Assembly (NCBI GenBank): GCA_028714495.1
Contig: JAQTMH010000001.1
Location: 245,036 to 309,035 of the forward strand
DNA length: 64,000 nucleotides
Reading direction: 5' to 3'
From: Patescibacteria group bacterium
GTDB taxonomy: Bacteria; Patescibacteriota; Patescibacteriia; JAHIZJ01
Of this stretch, positions 12,156-63,052 are shown one piece after another. A program made the translations under genes and the position numbers. Below the pieces are notes generated by a model that did no database searches, was not told the DNA's origin, and saw nothing but the letters and a program-made list of their open reading frames with translations. The stretch's first letter is position 1. Every line of letters begins with the position of its first letter.

Positions 12156-12206
12156 GCGAGCCTAACTAGTCCGCCTCTGGCGGAAGGCTCGCCTCCGAGA
12201 ATACAT

Positions 12207-12279
12207 GCCGCGGTGGTGGAACCCTGCACCATGTAAGGTGCAGGGCTCCGAACCTGGCATGGTTCGAGGCTGGGTAAAA
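12207..12279 (+). repeat. tRNA-Leu 5'-end-derived hairpin element A
   Basis: Begins GCCGCGGTGGtGGAAC, which is the first 16-17 nt of the downstream tRNA-Leu. Continues into the hairpin CCCTGCACCatgtaaGGTGCAGGG and a second stem. Ends GGGTAAAA. Confidence 0.6.
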
Positions 12280-12311
12280 TTTAATAACAAATATTCTTTA
12301 GAATAGTTGGT

Positions 12312-12413
12312 GCCGCGGTGGCGGAACTGTCCCGTACCACAATGGGTACGGGACACCCAGAACTCCACGCAGTTCTGGGTGGTATCCGGCACCCAACGTG
12401 GTGCCGGGTAAAA
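12312..12413 (+). repeat. tRNA-Leu 5'-end-derived hairpin element B
   Basis: Begins GCCGCGGTGGCGGAAC, identical to the tRNA-Leu 5' end. Followed by three perfect hairpins (GTCCCGTACC/GGTACGGGAC, ACCCAGAACT/AGTTCTGGGT, CCGGCACC/GGTGCCGG). Ends GGGTAAAA. Confidence 0.6.
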
Positions 12414-12445
12414 TCACAAACTGCAAATTATTCAGCCCAACTGGA

Positions 12446-12573: not shown

Positions 12574-12906
12574 ATGCATTATGTGTACTTTCTTCTTTCT
12601 CCATTTTCTAGTAAAACATACGTTGGCCGAACAAATTCTCTCGTCAGGAGAATTGCCGAACACCGAAATGGTAAATGCTGGACTACGGTTCGAATGGGAA
12701 AATTCATAGTAATTGGCTACGAGGCCTTTATGTCAAAAAGTGATTCTTTTAGACGCGAGAGGTACTTCAAAACATCAAAGGGCAGATCAACCCTACGATT
12801 AATGTTCCGAGATAGCATCGCCACGACACTTTTCCCTAACCACGCTGGGTTCGGGGTACCTAGTACCGGAACGAAGCGACTGGTGATGGGTAAAATCCCA
12901 AAATAA
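12574..12906 (+). CDS. GIY-YIG nuclease-domain protein (small, stand-alone)
   Basis: N-terminus 'HYVYFLLS...KTYVGRTNSLVRRIAEHRNG' matches the GIY...YIG...R...E...N signature. Confidence 0.55.
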   Translation: MHYVYFLLSPFSSKTYVGRTNSLVRRIAEHRNGKCWTTVRMGKFIVIGYEAFMSKSDSFRRERYFKTSKGRSTLRLMFRDSIATTLFPNHAGFGVPSTGTKRLVMGKIPK

Positions 12907-47609: not shown

Positions 47610-49436
47610 ATGAGGCCTAAGGAAATTACTTGGCAGTCTCTGGTCGGAGCATTCGTTGTCTCCACACTCATCGCAATGTCGTACCCCTACATCGTATTGA
47701 AGCTTGGCATGGGGCCAAATGTCTCCGTATTGGCCGCATTTCTCGGCGCGCTTTTCCTCATGGCTACGGCCAGGCGAACACGTGGTCAGAATGCAGTCCG
47801 CAACAACATCATCCAGACAGCCGCCACCAGCGCTACCTCGACCGCTTTCATGTGCGTGGTAGCCGCGGCCTTCGGCTACCTGAACATGAATGAGTCGGTC
47901 AGCCTCAAGGTACACATCACGCCCTGGCAGATGTTTTCGTGGCTATCTCTCTCGGGTACCATCGGCGTGCTGATTGCTGCGCTTTTCCGGCGCTACTTCA
48001 TCGACGACCCTGAGATGATCTTTGCCGACGGCGTGGCCGCAGCTGAGACCATCAATGTGCTTGACACAACGGGGTCGGAAGGCGGCCGGAAAATGCGTAC
48101 CCTGGGTTTTGGCGCCGTCGTCGGTGTCGCGGTTGCCTTTATCCGCGACGGGCTGCATAAGCTCGCGACCGTTCCGCTCATGATGCGATTCTCTATCGGC
48201 CTCGACTGGAGTCCGTTGTCCTTCGGCACGGGCCTACTCATCTCGCTCAACGTCGGACTCTCAATGTTGGCGGGAACGATTCTGGTCGCTTTGCTCGGCC
48301 CCCAGATCATGCACCTGGCGGGCCTGCAGATCGTACAGCAGGGCATCGCCCCGCAATATCTCAACCAGGTCATGGACTTTATTCGCTCTGGCGCGGTCCC
48401 GCTACCCGACTCACCGGAATGGCTTTTCCTGACGCAGCACGGCGGCATGGCCTTGAACTACCTGCGTGGCAACCACTACCCGATCATCATGCTCTGGTTC
48501 ATGTGGCCGGCGACCGCCATGATGATCACCGCTTCGCTCACGGCCGTGCTCCTGAAGTGGCGATCGATCACACGCATGTTCCAGTCTCTCTCCCTGAAGA
48601 AGAGTTCAACTACTGGCCGGCGCGAGGACGTCTCGCTCAAGACCATTGTCTGGCTGACCCTCGCCCTGACCGCATTCCTCGCTTATGTCCAGCACGAACA
48701 TTTCGGGATGCCGATCTGGCAAACTGTCATGTCCATTGTATTCAGCCTCCCGCTCATCCTCGTAGGCGTGCGGGTACTCGGCGAGACAAATCAGGGCCCA
48801 GTCAGTCTGATGGCCAACGCGCTCCAAGCCGTGTTCCGGCTGTTCTCGCCCCATGTCGGCCACAACCTTGTGGCCGCGGGCATGGCCGGAGACATCAACT
48901 CCCAGGGCGAGGGTACTATGCAGGTCTATCGCACCGGCCAACTTGTCGGCTCGACGCCACGCGTTCTGACCTGGATTCAGTTTAGCTTTATTCCGGTCGG
49001 AGCTGCCTCGGTGGCCATCATGTACCCGCTCTTAGTCCAGCGTTACGGTTTGGGTGAAGGTCTGGCCGCTCCGACCGGACTAAAACTCGCAAACATGGCC
49101 GTCCTGATGAGCAAAGGCCTTTCGGCTTTCCCGCCGGGCGCCCTCGCTTGGACGGTTGTGGCCGCGATTGCCGGCGTCTTCCTGACGCTTGGCAAAAGCA
49201 TCGGCAAACAGGCCTGGCTTCCGAGTGCGGCAGCGTTCGGCTTCGCCCTCATCCTCCCCGGTTTGCTCAATGTACCGATCGCTCTCGGCGCTGTTTGCGG
49301 CTGGTGGTGGAAGAAAGTGGCGCCCGAACACTATGATCGCCATCGCATCACGCTGGCTTCCGGTTTCATCGGCGGCGAAGCGCTGATCGCCGGCTTGCTC
49401 CTTCCGATTCTTTTCTACTTCGGCATCATTCGCTGA
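47610..49436 (+). CDS. OPT-family oligopeptide transporter (polytopic membrane protein)
   Basis: 608 aa with ~15-16 TM segments. Family call is based on size and topology only. Confidence 0.55.
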   Translation: MRPKEITWQSLVGAFVVSTLIAMSYPYIVLKLGMGPNVSVLAAFLGALFLMATARRTRGQNAVRNNIIQTAATSATSTAFMCVVAAAFGYLNMNESVSLKVHITPWQMFSWLSLSGTIGVLIAALFRRYFIDDPEMIFADGVAAAETINVLDTTGSEGGRKMRTLGFGAVVGVAVAFIRDGLHKLATVPLMMRFSIGLDWSPLSFGTGLLISLNVGLSMLAGTILVALLGPQIMHLAGLQIVQQGIAPQYLNQVMDFIRSGAVPLPDSPEWLFLTQHGGMALNYLRGNHYPIIMLWFMWPATAMMITASLTAVLLKWRSITRMFQSLSLKKSSTTGRREDVSLKTIVWLTLALTAFLAYVQHEHFGMPIWQTVMSIVFSLPLILVGVRVLGETNQGPVSLMANALQAVFRLFSPHVGHNLVAAGMAGDINSQGEGTMQVYRTGQLVGSTPRVLTWIQFSFIPVGAASVAIMYPLLVQRYGLGEGLAAPTGLKLANMAVLMSKGLSAFPPGALAWTVVAAIAGVFLTLGKSIGKQAWLPSAAAFGFALILPGLLNVPIALGAVCGWWWKKVAPEHYDRHRITLASGFIGGEALIAGLLLPILFYFGIIR

Positions 49437-49456
49437 TTTCCTCTTCGGAAATCGCA

Positions 49457-49486
49457 ACAGAGCCCGTCTCTAGGCTCTGTTTTTAT
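49457..49486 (+). terminator. intrinsic terminator after the transporter gene
   Basis: ACAGAGCC-cgtctcta-GGCTCTGT followed by TTTTAT. Confidence 0.65.
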
Positions 49487-49731
49487 ATTGTAATGAATGT
49501 TGATATGGTCCCATATTGCAAGACAATCATGCCCTTCATCAATGGGTGAATTCCACAATTATAGTCATATGTGCCCGAAGCCGAGAAAATGGATTTACTG
49601 ACTTAATTTTACATAGATGCTTGGCCAGTCAAATATATTCTAGCCGAACAAATACCGAACAGACAATTATTCCCTATTTTAAACCAAAAGGGTTGATTTT
49701 TATTTAATTTTTATTATAATCAAATGTACGT

Positions 49732-49807
49732 GGGCCTGTAGCTCATCTGGTAGAGCGCTTCCATGGCATGGAAGAGGTAAGGGGTTCGAGTCCCCTCAGG
49801 TCCACCA
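49732..49807 (+). tRNA. tRNA-Ala (anticodon GGC), CCA encoded
   Basis: GGGCCTG/CAGGTCC acceptor with G3:U70. Anticodon loop ATGGCAT. T-loop TTCGAGT. Confidence 0.9.
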
Positions 49808-49859
49808 AATTTAATTCCGATAACTACTTGCAATCAAAAATATATATCATGCCAATTAT

Positions 49860-50909
49860 ATGTTCAATGAAAATAAATTTTATTTGAATAAAGAGAGGAC
49901 TTCCCCAGACGCGGAAGAACAAGAAAGGATAAGAACGTCAAAAGAGGCTGTCAACGAAGTCATCGAGGAACGCGCACAATCTGTCCGCGAACGGTCAGTT
50001 GAATTTTCCCCAGAAATGGAAAGGTTTATTGCCGAAGCAAGGACCTGGCACGAAGAACGATTTCGTAAATTAGGCATAGATTGTATCACTTGGGGAAAGA
50101 ATTTTTTTAAAGTTCGTGAAGTCGAGGGTGGAACTTCCGGAAGTTCCGGATTAGGAATAAATCAGATTAAAGATTTAAGCACTGAAAGGCTTATGCCTAT
50201 TTCAATAGAGGAAGCAACGCGGCAAAACCAATTTCTTCCCATCGAAGTGCCGGATGAAATCCTTTCTGGAATTCCAAAAGGAGAGGCGGCAAGACAACTA
50301 CGCAATTACGTTGAGGCGTTGTTCATCGCTCACGAACTTTATCACGACGCGGCTCCAACATCAGTTTTATTCAAAACAGAAACCGATGAGACCACTGGGG
50401 AAAAATATCACGTAGCCGATTCGTTACCCTATGATCGGCATGGCGTACGTTATATTCGGCGCACTGAACACAGCGCTCCTCCGGCCGTTGAAGAGGGTTT
50501 AGCCATGACTATACAAAAACAAAGTGAGGGTTTTGCCGCTCAGCATTTTCCTGAAGGCGCCCGTATTTACCAGAAGCTATTGGATTATGTAGTAAGCAAT
50601 GATCCGAGGTTGAAAGATTATGACAGATCTCTTTTAAGTATCAGAAATTTTGATGGACATAATGTCAGGTATGGTCCGATGCAATACCTGGATGGATATA
50701 TTCTTACGACATTTTTATCTCGGCAAATTCCAAAATTTTTCGAAATAATTGAGCAAGCACGGATTAATGGAAAAGTCTTACCGCTTGCTCGCGCTGTTGA
50801 AAATAAATTTGGAAGAGGAAGTTATAAAAGGATTTTTACTGCTGGAGAAGATGAAGCACTCAATGTTTTAGAAGAGATAAGAGAGAAAGTAGACTCAAAG
50901 CAAAAATAA
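49860..50909 (+). CDS. hypothetical protein (349 aa, AT-rich)
   Basis: Long ORF followed by a hairpin/T-run at 50914-50946. Confidence 0.5.
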   Translation: MFNENKFYLNKERTSPDAEEQERIRTSKEAVNEVIEERAQSVRERSVEFSPEMERFIAEARTWHEERFRKLGIDCITWGKNFFKVREVEGGTSGSSGLGINQIKDLSTERLMPISIEEATRQNQFLPIEVPDEILSGIPKGEAARQLRNYVEALFIAHELYHDAAPTSVLFKTETDETTGEKYHVADSLPYDRHGVRYIRRTEHSAPPAVEEGLAMTIQKQSEGFAAQHFPEGARIYQKLLDYVVSNDPRLKDYDRSLLSIRNFDGHNVRYGPMQYLDGYILTTFLSRQIPKFFEIIEQARINGKVLPLARAVENKFGRGSYKRIFTAGEDEALNVLEEIREKVDSKQK

Positions 50910-50953: not shown

Positions 50954-51664
50954 CTACATCTGCTGATTGTCTTTTCTATCAGTCACATCCCGGTGTATTT
51001 TTTCCAACACGTCTTTTGCCTTTTCCCGGCCGCCTAGACCAAAGGCCAATCCGCCAGCTAATGCCAGCATGGCGACTAAGCCGGTGAATAGGGTCTCCAG
51101 CAAGTTTGCCGCGACTTTTAATTGAACCAACGCTGCTAAAATGCTGAAAATCAGTATTGCCCATTTAGCCACACTAGCTAGGAAATTAGCTGATAATAGG
51201 CCAGCTGCTTCGACCGACTTTCTTACAATGCTTTGCGCAAAATTTGCGAAAACAACGCCTAAAAGCAGTATAATCACAGCCACAATAACATTTGGCAGAT
51301 AGGACACAACGCCATCTAGAAACTCAGTCACTTGCTGGAGATTTAATACTTCAGAAGCAGAAACAATAAAAACGATAAACAAGAACCATTTCACCAGAAA
51401 ACCGCCGCCTTTGGCTATGTTTAGCTTAATTCCTGCTTTTTCAAACCCATCTTTAATGCCTAGTTTTTTCAAGGCATTATCAATCCAAACAATCTTTAAA
51501 ATCCTGACAACCAGCTTCTCAACCAGAATCGCGATGTACCAGCCAATGATCAGAATTAATATTGCGCCGATTAAATTTGGGAGAAAATTAATGACCCCTC
51601 TCCAAATATCCTGAAGTGAAGACATTAATACATCCCCCCAATCATTTACTGTCATTTTTCTCAC
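50954..51664 (-). CDS. membrane protein with repeated TM-helix modules (mechanosensitive-channel-like), hypothetical
   Basis: Four or five TM helices. Ends in a charged tail. Function uncertain. Confidence 0.45.
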   Translation of the reverse strand: MRKMTVNDWGDVLMSSLQDIWRGVINFLPNLIGAILILIIGWYIAILVEKLVVRILKIVWIDNALKKLGIKDGFEKAGIKLNIAKGGGFLVKWFLFIVFIVSASEVLNLQQVTEFLDGVVSYLPNVIVAVIILLLGVVFANFAQSIVRKSVEAAGLLSANFLASVAKWAILIFSILAALVQLKVAANLLETLFTGLVAMLALAGGLAFGLGGREKAKDVLEKIHRDVTDRKDNQQM

Positions 51665-51769
51665 CTCCTTTCTTTTGGCTAATGTTAGCCATTTAAATTG
51701 TTTTTATAAACACAATATTCACATTATTTAAAGATCTAATTCTTGACAATAAACTACATTTTGCTAGTT

Positions 51770-52090
51770 TATATAGGCGAGATATTCCTTGTCCGGTGGT
51801 TCGTTCTTCCTTGTCAGGTGCCAACGAGTTACCTGACTAAGGTCCTTGGAATTGCGCGGCTACCCGGAAGATATGGGAGGGTGCACCTGGTCTTTCTGGG
51901 GAAACTAGTGCCAAGCACTCGAATGAGCTTGACGTTAATGGTCACTCCAACCTCTCTCGCTCAAGGTAAGTGCTCCAGGCGAAAAAAATCGGACGCAAGA
52001 ACCAACCAAATCGCAGGAAACTGCCACCACTGCCGCTCCTTAGACAAGGAGTCATTCTCGCACACGGGATAGAGCTCTGCTCGATTCCCG
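51770..52090 (+). ncRNA. candidate ~320-nt non-coding RNA of unknown family
   Basis: Exact -35 TTGACA at 51733-51738 with an AT-rich -10 region (TTTATA/TATATA) about 19-21 bp downstream. Strong intrinsic terminator at 52055-52090. Internal stems such as GTGCcaaGCAC. The overlapping 109-aa ORF has no RBS. Confidence 0.3.
52055..52090 (+). terminator. intrinsic terminator
   Basis: CGGGA-tagagctctgctcgat-TCCCG followed by TCTTTTTTTT. Confidence 0.6.
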
Positions 52091-52113
52091 TCTTTTTTTT
52101 GCTTATTTTAGCA

Positions 52114-52127
52114 ATTTTTCAATGTTC
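52114..52127. promoter_or_regulatory. perfect 14-bp palindrome GTTCCACGTGGAAC (copy 1 of 3)
   Basis: Exact dyad. Copies at 52825-52838 (one mismatch) and 53125-53138. Each lies 50-90 bp 5' (on the minus strand) of an RNA-gene cluster. Confidence 0.5.
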
Positions 52128-52181
52128 CACGTGGAACAACCGACCAATCAACCAATTTACCAATTAACTAGCTTTGGTGCC

Positions 52182-52770
52182 TTTCCGCAACCCGCCTGAC
52201 AAAGCGTGGTGGAGACACGGGGAGTCACCGCCATAGGCGCCTGCCCGACGGCTGGCGGGGGTCCGCCTTATCTATAATTTTTTATTTAGTTGTGGCGGAG
52301 AACTCTCCTAATCTCTTCCATTTCCCCGTATTCGAAGTGTAAGCATCAAGGCGTGCCAAGTAAAAATTATGGTTTTTTGGTCTGTACTTGGTGGGCCTAG
52401 GCGGCCCCGGACTCGGATCCGGGGGAACCGCTGTTTCCACAATGCGAATGCGGGGTCTCGCCTGCTTACCTATGCTTGGTGGAGATGGGGGGACTCGGAC
52501 CCCCTACCTCAGTCCCGCAACCGGGTGGAACCGTGCCCCGCCGCATGGCGGGGCGACCTCCGCAACCCGCCTGCCAAAGCGTGGTGGAGACAGGGGGAGT
52601 CGAACCCCCGACCTTCGCAATGCGAATGCGACGCTCTACCAACTGAGCTATGTCCCCACCACGCGGCGGGCAGGTGCGAATGCGGCGCTCTACCAACTGA
52701 GCTAACGGCCCACCCTGGTGCGGGACGAATGCTGCGCTCTACCAGATGAGCTACATCCCCATCAAGCATA
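52182..52770 (-). repeat. array of tRNA-Ala-derived fragments (5' halves and CCA-ended 3' pieces) surrounding the intact tRNA-Ala(CGC)
   Basis: On the minus strand: GGGGATGTAGCTCATCTGGTAGAGCGCAGCATTCG...CACCA; GGGCCGTTAGCTCAGTTGGTAGAGCGCCGCATTCGCA...; the intact tRNA; then GGTAGGGGGTCCGAGTCCCCCCATCTCCACCA, ...CCGAGTCCGGGGCCGCCTAGGCCCACCA and GACTCCCCGTGTCTCCACCA. The overlapping six-frame ORFs here are artefacts. Confidence 0.6.
52582..52657 (-). tRNA. tRNA-Ala (anticodon CGC), CCA encoded
   Basis: Minus strand GGGGACAtaGCTCagttggtaGAGCgTCGCAttcgcatTGCGAaggtcGGGGGttcgactCCCCCTGTCTCCacca. G3:U70 present. Confidence 0.85.
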
Positions 52771-52824
52771 GGCGGGCAGGTCTTACCGCTGGACCATAGG
52801 CCCTAATATTAGCTAATTTTCGAT

Positions 52825-52838
52825 GTTCCACATGGAAC
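52825..52838. promoter_or_regulatory. palindrome GTTCCACATGGAAC (copy 2)
   Basis: Lies 56 bp on the 5' side (minus strand) of the tRNA-Ala fragment array. Confidence 0.45.
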
Positions 52839-52980
52839 AAATATTCCGTCCAACAATTAACCAATCAACTTATAGGCCAATTTCTATAAACAATCTGCTG
52901 ACCTTTGAGGACCCGGACTCTGAACCGGGGGAACCACCATCTCAACCATAGAATAGGTTAGTCTTGCCTGCCCTTGCCCG

Positions 52981-53052
52981 TGCCCCCACCATGAATCGAA
53001 CATGGATCCAGGGCTTAGGAGTCCCTTGTTCTATCCGTTGAACTATGGGGGC
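52981..53052 (-). tRNA. tRNA-Arg (anticodon CCU), CCA not encoded
   Basis: Minus strand GCCCCCAtaGTTCaacggataGAACaAGGGActcctaaGCCCTggatCCATGttcgattCATGGTGGGGGCa. A31-G39 mismatch at the base of the anticodon stem. Confidence 0.75.
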
Positions 53053-53124
53053 ATAGGCTAGGGTAGGCATAATTAACCATTGCTAATCTGTTCTTTTATC
53101 TAATATTAGCAATATAACATATAT

Positions 53125-53138
53125 GTTCCACGTGGAAC
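53125..53138. promoter_or_regulatory. palindrome GTTCCACGTGGAAC (copy 3)
   Basis: Lies ~73 bp 5' (minus strand) of tRNA-Arg(CCU). TTGTTC-N17-TTATAT promoter-like spacing overlaps it on the minus strand. Confidence 0.45.
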
Positions 53139-53195
53139 AATATTTTCACTATTTATTATTTTTGCTTGTACTAGCATTAATTATGCGTCGTAAAA

Positions 53196-53414
53196 CTATA
53201 TAATAGCATTAAAAACATTTTCTGATAAATTAGTAATAAAGTCCTGTTTCACCTCAAAATAGTATAAAATACCCAAGCCAGCGAATATTATAATACAAAT
53301 AATTAATATTGTCAATAAATCCCTTTTCAAAATGTTTACCGGCTTTTTTTCTTTGGTTGGTTCATTGACTAATTCTGGCTGTTGAATAGGTTGGCTCTGA
53401 TCCTGGTTGCTCAT
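53196..53414 (-). CDS. small membrane protein (72 aa), hypothetical
   Basis: GGGAG RBS upstream. Single TM helix 'LLTILIICIIIFAGLGILYYF'. Confidence 0.35.
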   Translation of the reverse strand: MSNQDQSQPIQQPELVNEPTKEKKPVNILKRDLLTILIICIIIFAGLGILYYFEVKQDFITNLSENVFNAII

Positions 53415-62800: not shown

Positions 62801-62875
62801 GCGCCCGTAGTTCAATGGATAGAATGCTTGGCTTCGGACCAAGAGGTTGGGGGTTCGAGTCCCTCCGGGCGCACT
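62801..62875 (+). tRNA. tRNA-Arg (anticodon UCG), CCA not encoded
   Basis: Acceptor GCGCCCG/CGGGCGC. Anticodon stem CTTGG/CCAAG with loop CTTCGGA. T-loop TTCGAGT. Confidence 0.85.
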
Positions 62876-62924
62876 TTAGAAACCACAATGCATCTTGAAT
62901 AAGTAAGCTTGTGTTTGATATAGA

Positions 62925-63052
62925 GTGGACTCGAAGGGCACCCTGCACCATGACGGTGCAGGGTAGAGCTAGAATCCGCGCCCCACACTCGATTCTGAAC
63001 CTGAGTGTAGCGACTGGTTCAGAGAGTGGTGCGGTGGCCTCCGGGCGCACCA
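62925..63052 (+). repeat. tRNA-Arg 3'-end-derived hairpin element
   Basis: Contains CCCTGCACCatgacgGGTGCAGGG, the same hairpin as element A near tRNA-Leu. A tRNA-like shell GCGCCCC...[TCTGAACC/GGTTCAGA stem]...CCTCCGGGCGCACCA reuses the acceptor ends of tRNA-Arg(UCG) and adds CCA. Confidence 0.55.

Follow-up and report, generated by a model that had tools for sequence, protein, structure and literature searches.

The stretch analysed here, referred to as the window, comprises 64,000 nt of contig JAQTMH010000001.1 (GCA_028714495.1) and contains on its minus strand a tRNA-Ala(CGC) gene surrounded by pieces of other tRNA genes. The source organism belongs to the Patescibacteria: when the IF-2 protein of the window was compared with reference genomes, the best matches were Patescibacteria metagenome-assembled genomes (top identity 66%), and no syntenic relative was found in that scan. 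A single complete tRNA was identified within positions 52182-52770, namely tRNA-Ala(CGC) at 52582-52657 on the minus strand, which was called by ARAGORN and passed the Rfam model RF00005 with 72.9 bits against a gathering threshold of 29. A tRNA-Arg(CCT), also found by both programs, lies 320 nt upstream at 52980-53052. An earlier note, made from the letters of this DNA, had described the alanine gene as embedded in a tandem array of tRNA halves. Every sequence element listed there is present, including the two 5' halves upstream of the intact gene (52760-52726 and 52711-52675) and three 3' pieces downstream (52565-52524, 52512-52477 and 52456-52389), and a third 5' piece (52803-52781) was found beyond the region it had described. 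The arrangement is a different one, as both the parse and the fold of the region reveal nested whole genes, each split by the next insertion, instead of halves in tandem.

Positions 52803-52389 of the minus strand form a single 415-nt block that can be parsed into nested parts with no gap. The parts are listed below from 5' to 3', inwards from the outermost shell (h0) through h1 and h2 to the intact gene and then outwards again, together with the elements that flank the block.

52824-52839, no strand assigned: palindrome TGTTCCATGTGGAACA, situated upstream of the nest; the window has three copies, all of them preceding RNA units
52804-52815, minus strand: putative promoter box AGCTAATATTAG, immediately 5' of the outermost shell
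52781-52803, minus strand: h0 5' piece, acceptor strand GGGCCTA and D-arm remnant, pairing with TAGGCCC (52399-52393) in the fold
52761-52780, minus strand: 5' terminus CCTGCCCGCC and leader of the unit inserted in h0 (inverted repeat I3)
52726-52760, minus strand: h1 5' half, acceptor strand GGGGATG, D-arm and 5' strand of the anticodon stem, ending in TTCG
52712-52725, minus strand: leader TCCCGCACCAGGGT of the unit inserted in h1, pairing with the trailer at 52523-52513
52675-52711, minus strand: h2 5' half (GGGCCGT...), tRNA-Ala(CGC) positions 1-37, ending in CCGCA TTCGCA
52658-52674, minus strand: innermost cassette, 5' terminus CCTGCCCGCC and leader GCGTGGT (repeats D11 and I12)
52582-52657, minus strand: intact tRNA-Ala(CGC) with G3:U70 and encoded CCA (ARAGORN; Rfam RF00005)
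52566-52581, minus strand: innermost cassette, trailer CGCTTTG and inverted 3' terminus GCAGGCGGG
52524-52565, minus strand: h2 3' half, T38, TGCGG, AGGTC, a GC hairpin replacing the T-arm, and acceptor strand ACGGTTC, which contains one extra T
52513-52523, minus strand: trailer of the unit inserted in h1 (I9)
52477-52512, minus strand: h1 3' part, variable loop, T-arm GGGGG TCCGAGT CCCCC, acceptor strand CATCTCC and ACCA (repeat D3)
52457-52476, minus strand: trailer of the unit inserted in h0, with its degenerate inverted terminus AGCATAGGTAAGCAGGCGAG (I3)
52389-52456, minus strand: h0 3' part, anticodon arm CCGCA TTCGCAT TGTGG, aberrant T-arm-like hairpin, TAGGCCC and ACCA (repeat D5)
52184-52226, minus strand: separate 43-nt copy of the inner tRNA 3' end (repeat D4, 95% identity)

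The intact gene is located precisely between nucleotides 37 and 38 (A37 and T38) of h2, itself a tRNA-Ala(CGC), whereas h2 lies within the anticodon arm of h1 and h1 within h0. The two h2 junctions, TTCGCA/CCTGCC and GGCGGG/TTGCGG, show no shared or duplicated base. Each of the 5' acceptor strands is complementary to the 3' piece at the mirror position, and the four resulting stems differ in sequence. In every inner unit the leader is complementary to the unit's own CCA end and trailer, as seen in the inverted repeats I3 (27 nt, 81% complementary), I9 (17 nt, 88%) and I12. The minimum free energy fold of 52815-52370 (446 nt) is a cloverleaf within a cloverleaf at four levels, with -237 kcal/mol and z = -8.65, and none of 100 shuffled sequences folded as stably. 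The 5' half of h1 is 72% identical to the intact gene and that of h2 82% (both in repeat D1), and h1 retains G3:U70 and ACCA. The sole promoter-like element of the whole nest is the AGCTAATATTAG box, which falls within a 68-nt repeat (D2) common to the nest and the downstream unit.

When the inserts were removed from the window shells h2, h1 and h0, no tRNA gene was called by ARAGORN. Rfam found no additional tRNA in the nest region and no family matching the nest; the covariance models call one complete tRNA here, not several. At E <= 10 across 51600-53300, the only matches besides the two tRNAs were sub-threshold and attributable to chance (plastid untranslated-region families mirroring the tRNAs, tRNA-Sec and permuted transfer-messenger RNA (tmRNA)), with no ribozyme and no intron among them, and the group I covariance model gave no match even at this threshold. 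No tmRNA, the two-piece form included, was found by ARAGORN, and the Rfam tmRNA matches reached just 9-15 bits against gathering scores of 47-84. The overlapping open reading frames (ORFs) in the nest region match no Pfam family, in agreement with the earlier view that they are artefacts.

Could the nest be an assembly artefact of a multi-copy tRNA operon? Repeats do trouble assemblers at the nest, as the contig from the Logan assembly of run SRR22315509 is broken within the repeated D-arm sequence. This contig is nevertheless 100% identical to the window over 990 nt (52636-51647), a stretch that begins midway in the inner tRNA and takes in all 3' shells, and the NCBI assembly GCA_028717285.1, a sister genome (L081), carries the same three shells; collapse during assembly is excluded on these two grounds. 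Three independent assemblies thus agree, the same architecture occurs in unrelated metagenomes, where one nest (L086) is also shown independently by an ENA assembly (L112), and a chimera would not yield matched complementary halves nested in order. We therefore regard an artefact as exceedingly improbable.

The sister genome encodes bactofilin and MscS-like proteins identical to those of the window. In the alignment of the two loci, h0, h1 and h2 are conserved and the innermost cassette is exchanged as a whole block: L081 has another tRNA-Ala(CGC) allele (GGGCCAT...) with flanks three times longer and a promoter-like GCTAATATTGG box of its own. The swap is bounded exactly at the termini, the common ends being CC...GGCGGG. 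Small differences were observed in all three shells. A 22-nt GC hairpin is present in the h1 D-loop of L081 and absent from that of the window, T54 of h1 is altered in the window (the T-loop reads TTCGAGT in L081), the h2 acceptor of L081 lacks the extra T and forms a perfect stem with G3:U70, and the 3' part of h0 shows about seven differences, including uncompensated acceptor changes. Overall, the shells diverge by about 3-4%, similar to the surrounding spacer and with some changes at invariant positions (T54, acceptor stem), whereas the neighbouring tRNA-Arg shows no difference in 73 nt; this comparison, in which the numbers are small, points to shells that are free of constraint.

The separate 43-nt copy at 52226-52184, which the earlier note had reported as a duplicated tRNA 3' end with flank, spans the inner tRNA from the T-loop to the 3' end, the trailer, the terminus and the first seven nucleotides of the h2 3' half. 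This copy and 300 nt downstream of it are absent from L081, and the region is therefore undergoing DNA-level rearrangement. The copy itself is a scar left by an earlier rearrangement, and it is the sole piece that looks like a classical repeat of the type found at phage attachment (att) sites.

Nests were also found outside this lineage. A metagenome scan for the D-arm of tRNA-Ala(CGC) up to position 37 followed by CCYGCC matched six contigs (L084-L089). All six contain a complete tRNA-Ala(CGC) within about 50 nt, and in four of the six a matching 3' half follows directly after the insert; neither feature was imposed by the search. Insertion at 37/38 was observed in h2 of the window and in L084, L086, L087 and L088. 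Likewise not imposed by the pattern, the conserved part of the termini reaches 10-15 bases, in either of two versions, CCTGCCCGCC and CCCGCCTGCC, and an inverted partner stands at the other end of the insert (CCTGCCCGCC...GGCAGGCGGG, or in the swapped arrangement CCCGCCTGC...GGCGGGCAGG). The 5' terminus CCTGCCCGCC of the innermost window cassette recurs in L084, L087 and L088, and the segment 52566-52581 matches the reverse complement of the L089 5' terminus at 15 of 16 nt. Within the 64-kb window the complete 10-nt terminus motifs are confined to the nest, and a shorter 9-nt form occurs also at 1538 and 22638. These termini are common to unrelated contigs whereas leaders and trailers are not conserved, so the termini must be functional in some way. 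The terminal helix invariably contains a U.G pair and a C/A mismatch at its positions 3 and 7, and these trade places between the two arrangements. This is a hint that a folded single strand, of RNA or of DNA, is being recognised.

The outer genes range from flawless to fragmentary. Both L086 and L088 fold into one cloverleaf inside another; their outer genes are free of flaws and, once the inserts are removed, are called as tRNA-Ala(CGC) by ARAGORN. The spliced shell of L084 is likewise called as tRNA-Ala; that of L087 is not called. Both L084 and L087 carry an extra 40-nt GC hairpin in the outer D-loop, L087 has in addition an outer T-arm replaced by a GC hairpin and damaged acceptor pairing, and L085 and L089 retain the outer 5' half alone. 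GC hairpin insertions are confined to the shells. In L084, two solo hairpins built from both termini and containing no tRNA are found, one on either side of the cassette. Inner and outer tRNAs are 69-76% identical in L084, L085 and L088 and are mostly not mutual nearest relatives; as they are usually not each other's closest kin, the sequences favour a foreign origin of the cassettes. One distinct type, GGGCCTA...TAGGTCC, serves as the inner gene of four contigs, and in the window it forms the outermost shell.

These outer genes bring up a different explanation, in which the insert is a new kind of bacterial tRNA intron. The terminal helix, marked by its wobble pair, would designate two cuts at 37/38, the shell exons would be rejoined by proteins, and a single precursor would yield both the outer and the inner tRNA-Ala, the second being delivered by the intron; shells that are intact, as in L086 and L088, would then still be expressed. 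The exact canonical intron position, the lack of duplication and the perfect tRNA restored by removal in L086, L088 and L084 all fit this explanation, as does the helix that begins directly at the A37:U38 pair in the predicted folds of L086 and L088. Conserved termini beside unconserved leaders and trailers, and the swapped U.G and C/A pairs, are what selection on a folded strand should produce, and tRNA introns are already known to be abundant in Patescibacteria (PMC13011429). However, the junctions show no bulge-helix-bulge (BHB) geometry when the folds are read by eye: a 5-nt bulge (positions 32-36) is followed by the A37:U38 pair, which runs into the insert helix. Neither group I nor any other ribozyme matches the insert, and the shells decay freely, with T-arms replaced, acceptor pairs lost, D-loops enlarged by insertions and 3' halves missing. 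Among the six contigs, the terminal helix never occurs as the sole insert with no substitute tRNA, a pattern to be expected only where insertion inactivates the host gene, and the promoter-like box of the L081 cassette indicates copied DNA. On balance we consider an intron unlikely. A weaker version, in which a new self-propagating element targets, by way of a folded single strand, the anticodon loop of the tRNA species that it carries itself, shares this low standing.

Two further loci bear on the order of events. At L126 the methyltransferase is 88% identical in protein sequence to the one downstream of the L087 nest, and beside it lies an orthologous, more decayed shell that contains a different inner tRNA without these termini. 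At L125 the methyltransferase is 55% identical to that of L087, with a tRNA-Leu upstream as well, and an uninterrupted tRNA-Ala(CGC) there matches the insert-removed shell of L084 at 73 of 76 positions (96%); the three differences all fall in the anticodon stem and keep its pairing. By sequence, L125 reads as the empty-site state, and the loci can be arranged in what appears to be a series from empty (L125) through occupied and intact to occupied and decayed, and finally to truncated forms with the 5' half only. An empty site was also sought around L086 through its CYTH-domain neighbour, and this search returned only the identical nest in another assembly, the distant homologues being not syntenic. 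The exchange of the cassette between the window and L081 despite identical neighbouring proteins, and the different inner tRNA of L126 in a shell orthologous to that of L087, are both evidence for events at the DNA level.

Taken together, the locus is likely to be a stack of four tRNA-Ala(CGC) genes, each inserted in its predecessor, that arose by serial DNA-level insertion of replacement cassettes carrying a tRNA. Such a cassette would consist of a GC-rich terminus, a leader, the tRNA, a trailer after the CCA end that is complementary to the leader, and the inverted terminus. It would have entered between nucleotides 37 and 38 of the resident h2, destroying the resident and supplying its replacement, and the same insertion would have occurred earlier in h1 and in h0. 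As the newcomer would offer a fresh intact target, the event could recur and the nest deepen, whereas the split shells would be inert and would drift, losing T-arms and acceptor pairing and gaining short GC hairpins. Since the window's inner gene lacks a separate promoter, transcription probably starts at the box before h0 and yields the whole nest as a single precursor, from which normal end-processing would cut the inner tRNA. The cassette may be a dedicated mobile unit; it may have been moved in trans by some enzyme or have spread through recombination between tRNA genes.

A functional composite RNA, in which the shells act as a scaffold, as a processing platform or as chargeable split tRNA-like molecules, would account for the exceptionally stable predicted structure and for the G3:U70 and ACCA kept by h1. 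It would also suit the tRNA-Arg(CCT) unit, where a homologous promoter, flanking stem and 3' module (D2, D5, I1) are present as if the frame had been reused, as well as the interiors of the L084 and L087 nests, which are almost identical although the downstream genes are only 30% identical and the spacers unalignable. This explanation is very unlikely, since the shells of close relatives differ at structural positions and by large insertions, nest depth and content vary among loci, and no Rfam family matches.

The earlier note had taken the pieces as the expected scars of integrase-mediated insertion and excision. Remnants of tRNA genes and DNA-level insertion at a tRNA gene are borne out by the present analysis, whereas integration and excision by an integrase are not, there being no core and no duplicated segment. 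In its general form, the idea is that elements of tyrosine or serine integrases repeatedly entered and left, partly duplicating the gene, and that their bodies were later deleted. Several observations speak for it: the 43-nt copy begins in the T-loop, like the att repeats of tRNA-targeting elements; 3' fragments with the same starting point lie behind a tRNA-Ala(GGC) in the Patescibacteria contig WFTA01000005.1 (L029); the genes flanking tRNAs differ between the two sister genomes; and in L085 the C-terminal two thirds of a large serine recombinase (63-1265; Recombinase and zinc-ribbon domains) abut the inner tRNA-Ala(CGC), neither the catalytic domain nor an outer 3' half being reached before the contig ends. 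Integration of this kind, however, gives one rebuilt gene with displaced tandem pieces and not matched halves around a complete gene, and no crossover core or tRNA segment is directly repeated at the junctions, not even the two nucleotides that a serine integrase requires, as no dinucleotide is common to both junctions in any of the six complete examples. The compact form of trailer followed by inverted terminus appears independently in at least five contexts, which random deletion of element bodies would not yield, and the Pfam search of the window genes found no integrase, the earlier note having stated that none is nearby. This origin therefore appears improbable.

Other insertion chemistries were compared with the junctions. 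For DDE transposons and miniature inverted-repeat elements, terminal inverted repeats are present; there is no target duplication, and many dispersed copies are not found in the 64 kb. A tRNA-targeting island would bring an integrase and cargo, and only L085 shows anything comparable with its partial recombinase. For the HUH/Y1 elements (IS200/IS605, REP/RAYT), the lack of duplication and the folded-strand signature would fit; the nest has no separate subterminal hairpins, and a transposase was not seen in the loci examined. Inspection of the junctions by eye for BHB, a serine-integrase core, an integron-type G/TT boundary and Helitron-like A/T insertion gave no candidate that fits both. Scans of viral contigs for the 5' half with terminus, for joined termini as a putative attP and for the junction alone returned nothing or chance matches; the latter were coding regions of GC-rich phages with no tRNA and were rejected.

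A number of points weigh against serial cassette insertion. The junctions as they stand are explained by none of the well-known insertion chemistries, and the flawless shells of L086, L088 and L084 at the canonical tRNA intron site would fit a spliced intron too. The search itself accounts in part for the constancy of the site, since both the 37/38 junction and six terminus bases were built into the pattern. The interior shared by L084 and L087 suggests either horizontal movement of that interior or selection on it. Neither in the window, where the genes neighbouring the nest include MscS-like, bactofilin, DAGK and others, nor in seven of the eight related loci did Pfam reveal an adjoining recombinase, transposase or homing endonuclease, and the genes adjoining the nests have no mobility gene in common. 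The cassette was not encountered in a free or autonomous form, and the comparison of rates between the window and L081 is based on about ten differences.

Several features around the nest and at other RNA loci were recorded in addition. The 16-nt palindrome TGTTCCACGTGGAACA occurs at 52123-52138, 52824-52839 and 53124-53139 (three copies against 0.01 expected), in every case with a TAATAT or TAAAAT box some 20 nt further on and an RNA unit behind that box, and the sister genome has one copy before the MscS-like gene instead; the palindrome could be an operator or a recombination site. Behind the third copy, the minus strand contains about 300 nt (51790-52090) that are GC-richer than their surroundings, with no Rfam match (E <= 10), no Pfam match for the ORFs and a fold only weakly better than shuffles (z = -2.5). 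In the sister genome this segment is absent and a 92-aa cysteine-rich ORF is found in its place. Two further sets of coordinates are as follows.

52902-53085, minus strand: tRNA-Arg(CCT) unit, tRNA at 53052-52980 on a 40-nt leader/trailer stem (ARAGORN, I1, D5)
Window 12170-12182; L126 145-156, 312-325 and 352-366; L123 1845-1860: hairpin CCGCC TCT GGCGG or its complement

The tRNA-Arg(CCT) unit (52880-53140) shares the outer frame of the nest, with a homologous promoter region and a flanking stem with related GC termini, and it contains an anticodon-arm-like hairpin with TCT. Its 3' module (48 nt, 75% identical to that of h0) confirms the recurrence of a pseudo-T-arm module after this tRNA that had been noted before. 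The common frame may be a reused landing pad.

Other tRNA genes of the window are likewise accompanied by dead partial copies and GC hairpins. The genuine tRNA-Leu(TAA) gene is preceded at 12196-12445 by two partial 5' copies, each of which is followed by GC hairpins of 9-11 bp and ends in GGGTAAAAT. One 29-nt hairpin at this locus is absent from the sister genome, so hairpins are gained or lost between near-identical strains. A 110-aa GIY-YIG protein (12574-12906; PF01541, E = 3.9e-11) starts 42 nt after the tRNA. At 62875-63052, a tRNA-Arg(TCG) whose CCA is not encoded precedes a second, decayed copy ending in CCTCCGGGCGCACCA, in which the acceptor strands are kept and the interior is replaced by hairpins, and the hairpin stem CCCTGCACC...GGTGCAGGG is present at both the tRNA-Leu and tRNA-Arg(TCG) loci. 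The tRNA-Ala(GGC) of the window is flanked by an OPT transporter gene (62% GC) and a 349-aa ORF with no Pfam match (47610-50909); the sister genome has no OPT gene and a YkuD-domain gene in place of the ORF, and gene content beside this tRNA is variable. In L029 (15990-16390), the tRNA-Ala(GGC) has an upstream 5' fragment ending in the D-loop and two downstream 3' fragments, with a GC hairpin before each. In Patescibacteria contigs that are unrelated to one another, the small CCGCC TCT GGCGG hairpin or its complement is found within dead tRNA copies or close to them. Fast replacement of tRNA genes appears to characterise the group.

Genomes of Patescibacteria are very small, their tRNA genes are single-copy, and genes of this class are generally regarded as some of the most stable of all. 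The nest locus contrasts with this, as one gene would have been overwritten three times or more, every event leaving its fossil trace on the spot. The occurrence of the same process in several lineages would make it a testable system for the turnover of tRNA genes and their movement between genomes. It also points to a duplication-free insertion chemistry at the site of archaeal and eukaryotic tRNA introns, and bears on the origin of split and intron-containing tRNA genes. In practical terms, nests mislead gene callers through spurious ORFs, break assemblies and conceal pseudogenes beside real tRNAs. Full-text literature searches, incomplete in coverage, returned no description of nested tRNA genes, and a prior description is possible.

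Among known systems, the palindromic elements found within genes of Rickettsia and the intervening sequences of 23S rRNA that are excised by RNase III resemble the nest in being short GC-rich or palindromic inserts in RNA genes, with a stem extending a native helix. They carry no gene and the host RNA stays functional, whereas in the nest the host gene is apparently sacrificed and replaced. Integrative elements that target tRNA genes, such as those behind the att sites of phages and islands and the tycheposons of Prochlorococcus (bioRxiv 10.1101/2020.12.28.424599), have in common with the nest the tRNA landing site, the restored function, the remnants and the variable neighbourhood. On the one hand, such an element restores the gene by means of a duplicated 3' segment, and the direct repeats that it leaves in tandem enclose kilobases of cargo with an integrase; on the other, in the nest a complete tRNA gene, 110-180 nt, occupies the anticodon loop, and both repeat and integrase are absent. 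The tRNA-Thr(GGU) of Caldiarchaeum subterraneum, whose disruption its authors attribute to a mobile element, is a further parallel, since in population variants the tRNA is replaced by another copy and the old 5' fragment lies upstream (PMC3293823). That case differs in being archaeal, in its 1.8-kb element with a recombinase, in its BHB introns and in leaving a tandem fragment, not a nested gene. The tRNA introns at 37/38 in archaea and eukaryotes and the group I introns in Patescibacteria tRNAs, described in a paper that does not mention nesting (PMC13011429), are likewise anticodon-loop inserts whose removal restores a normal tRNA. The nest has neither the BHB motif nor group I structure; its insert contains a complete tRNA and its host shells are decaying, and it shares with the canonical archaeal and eukaryal introns the exact position between nucleotides 37 and 38.

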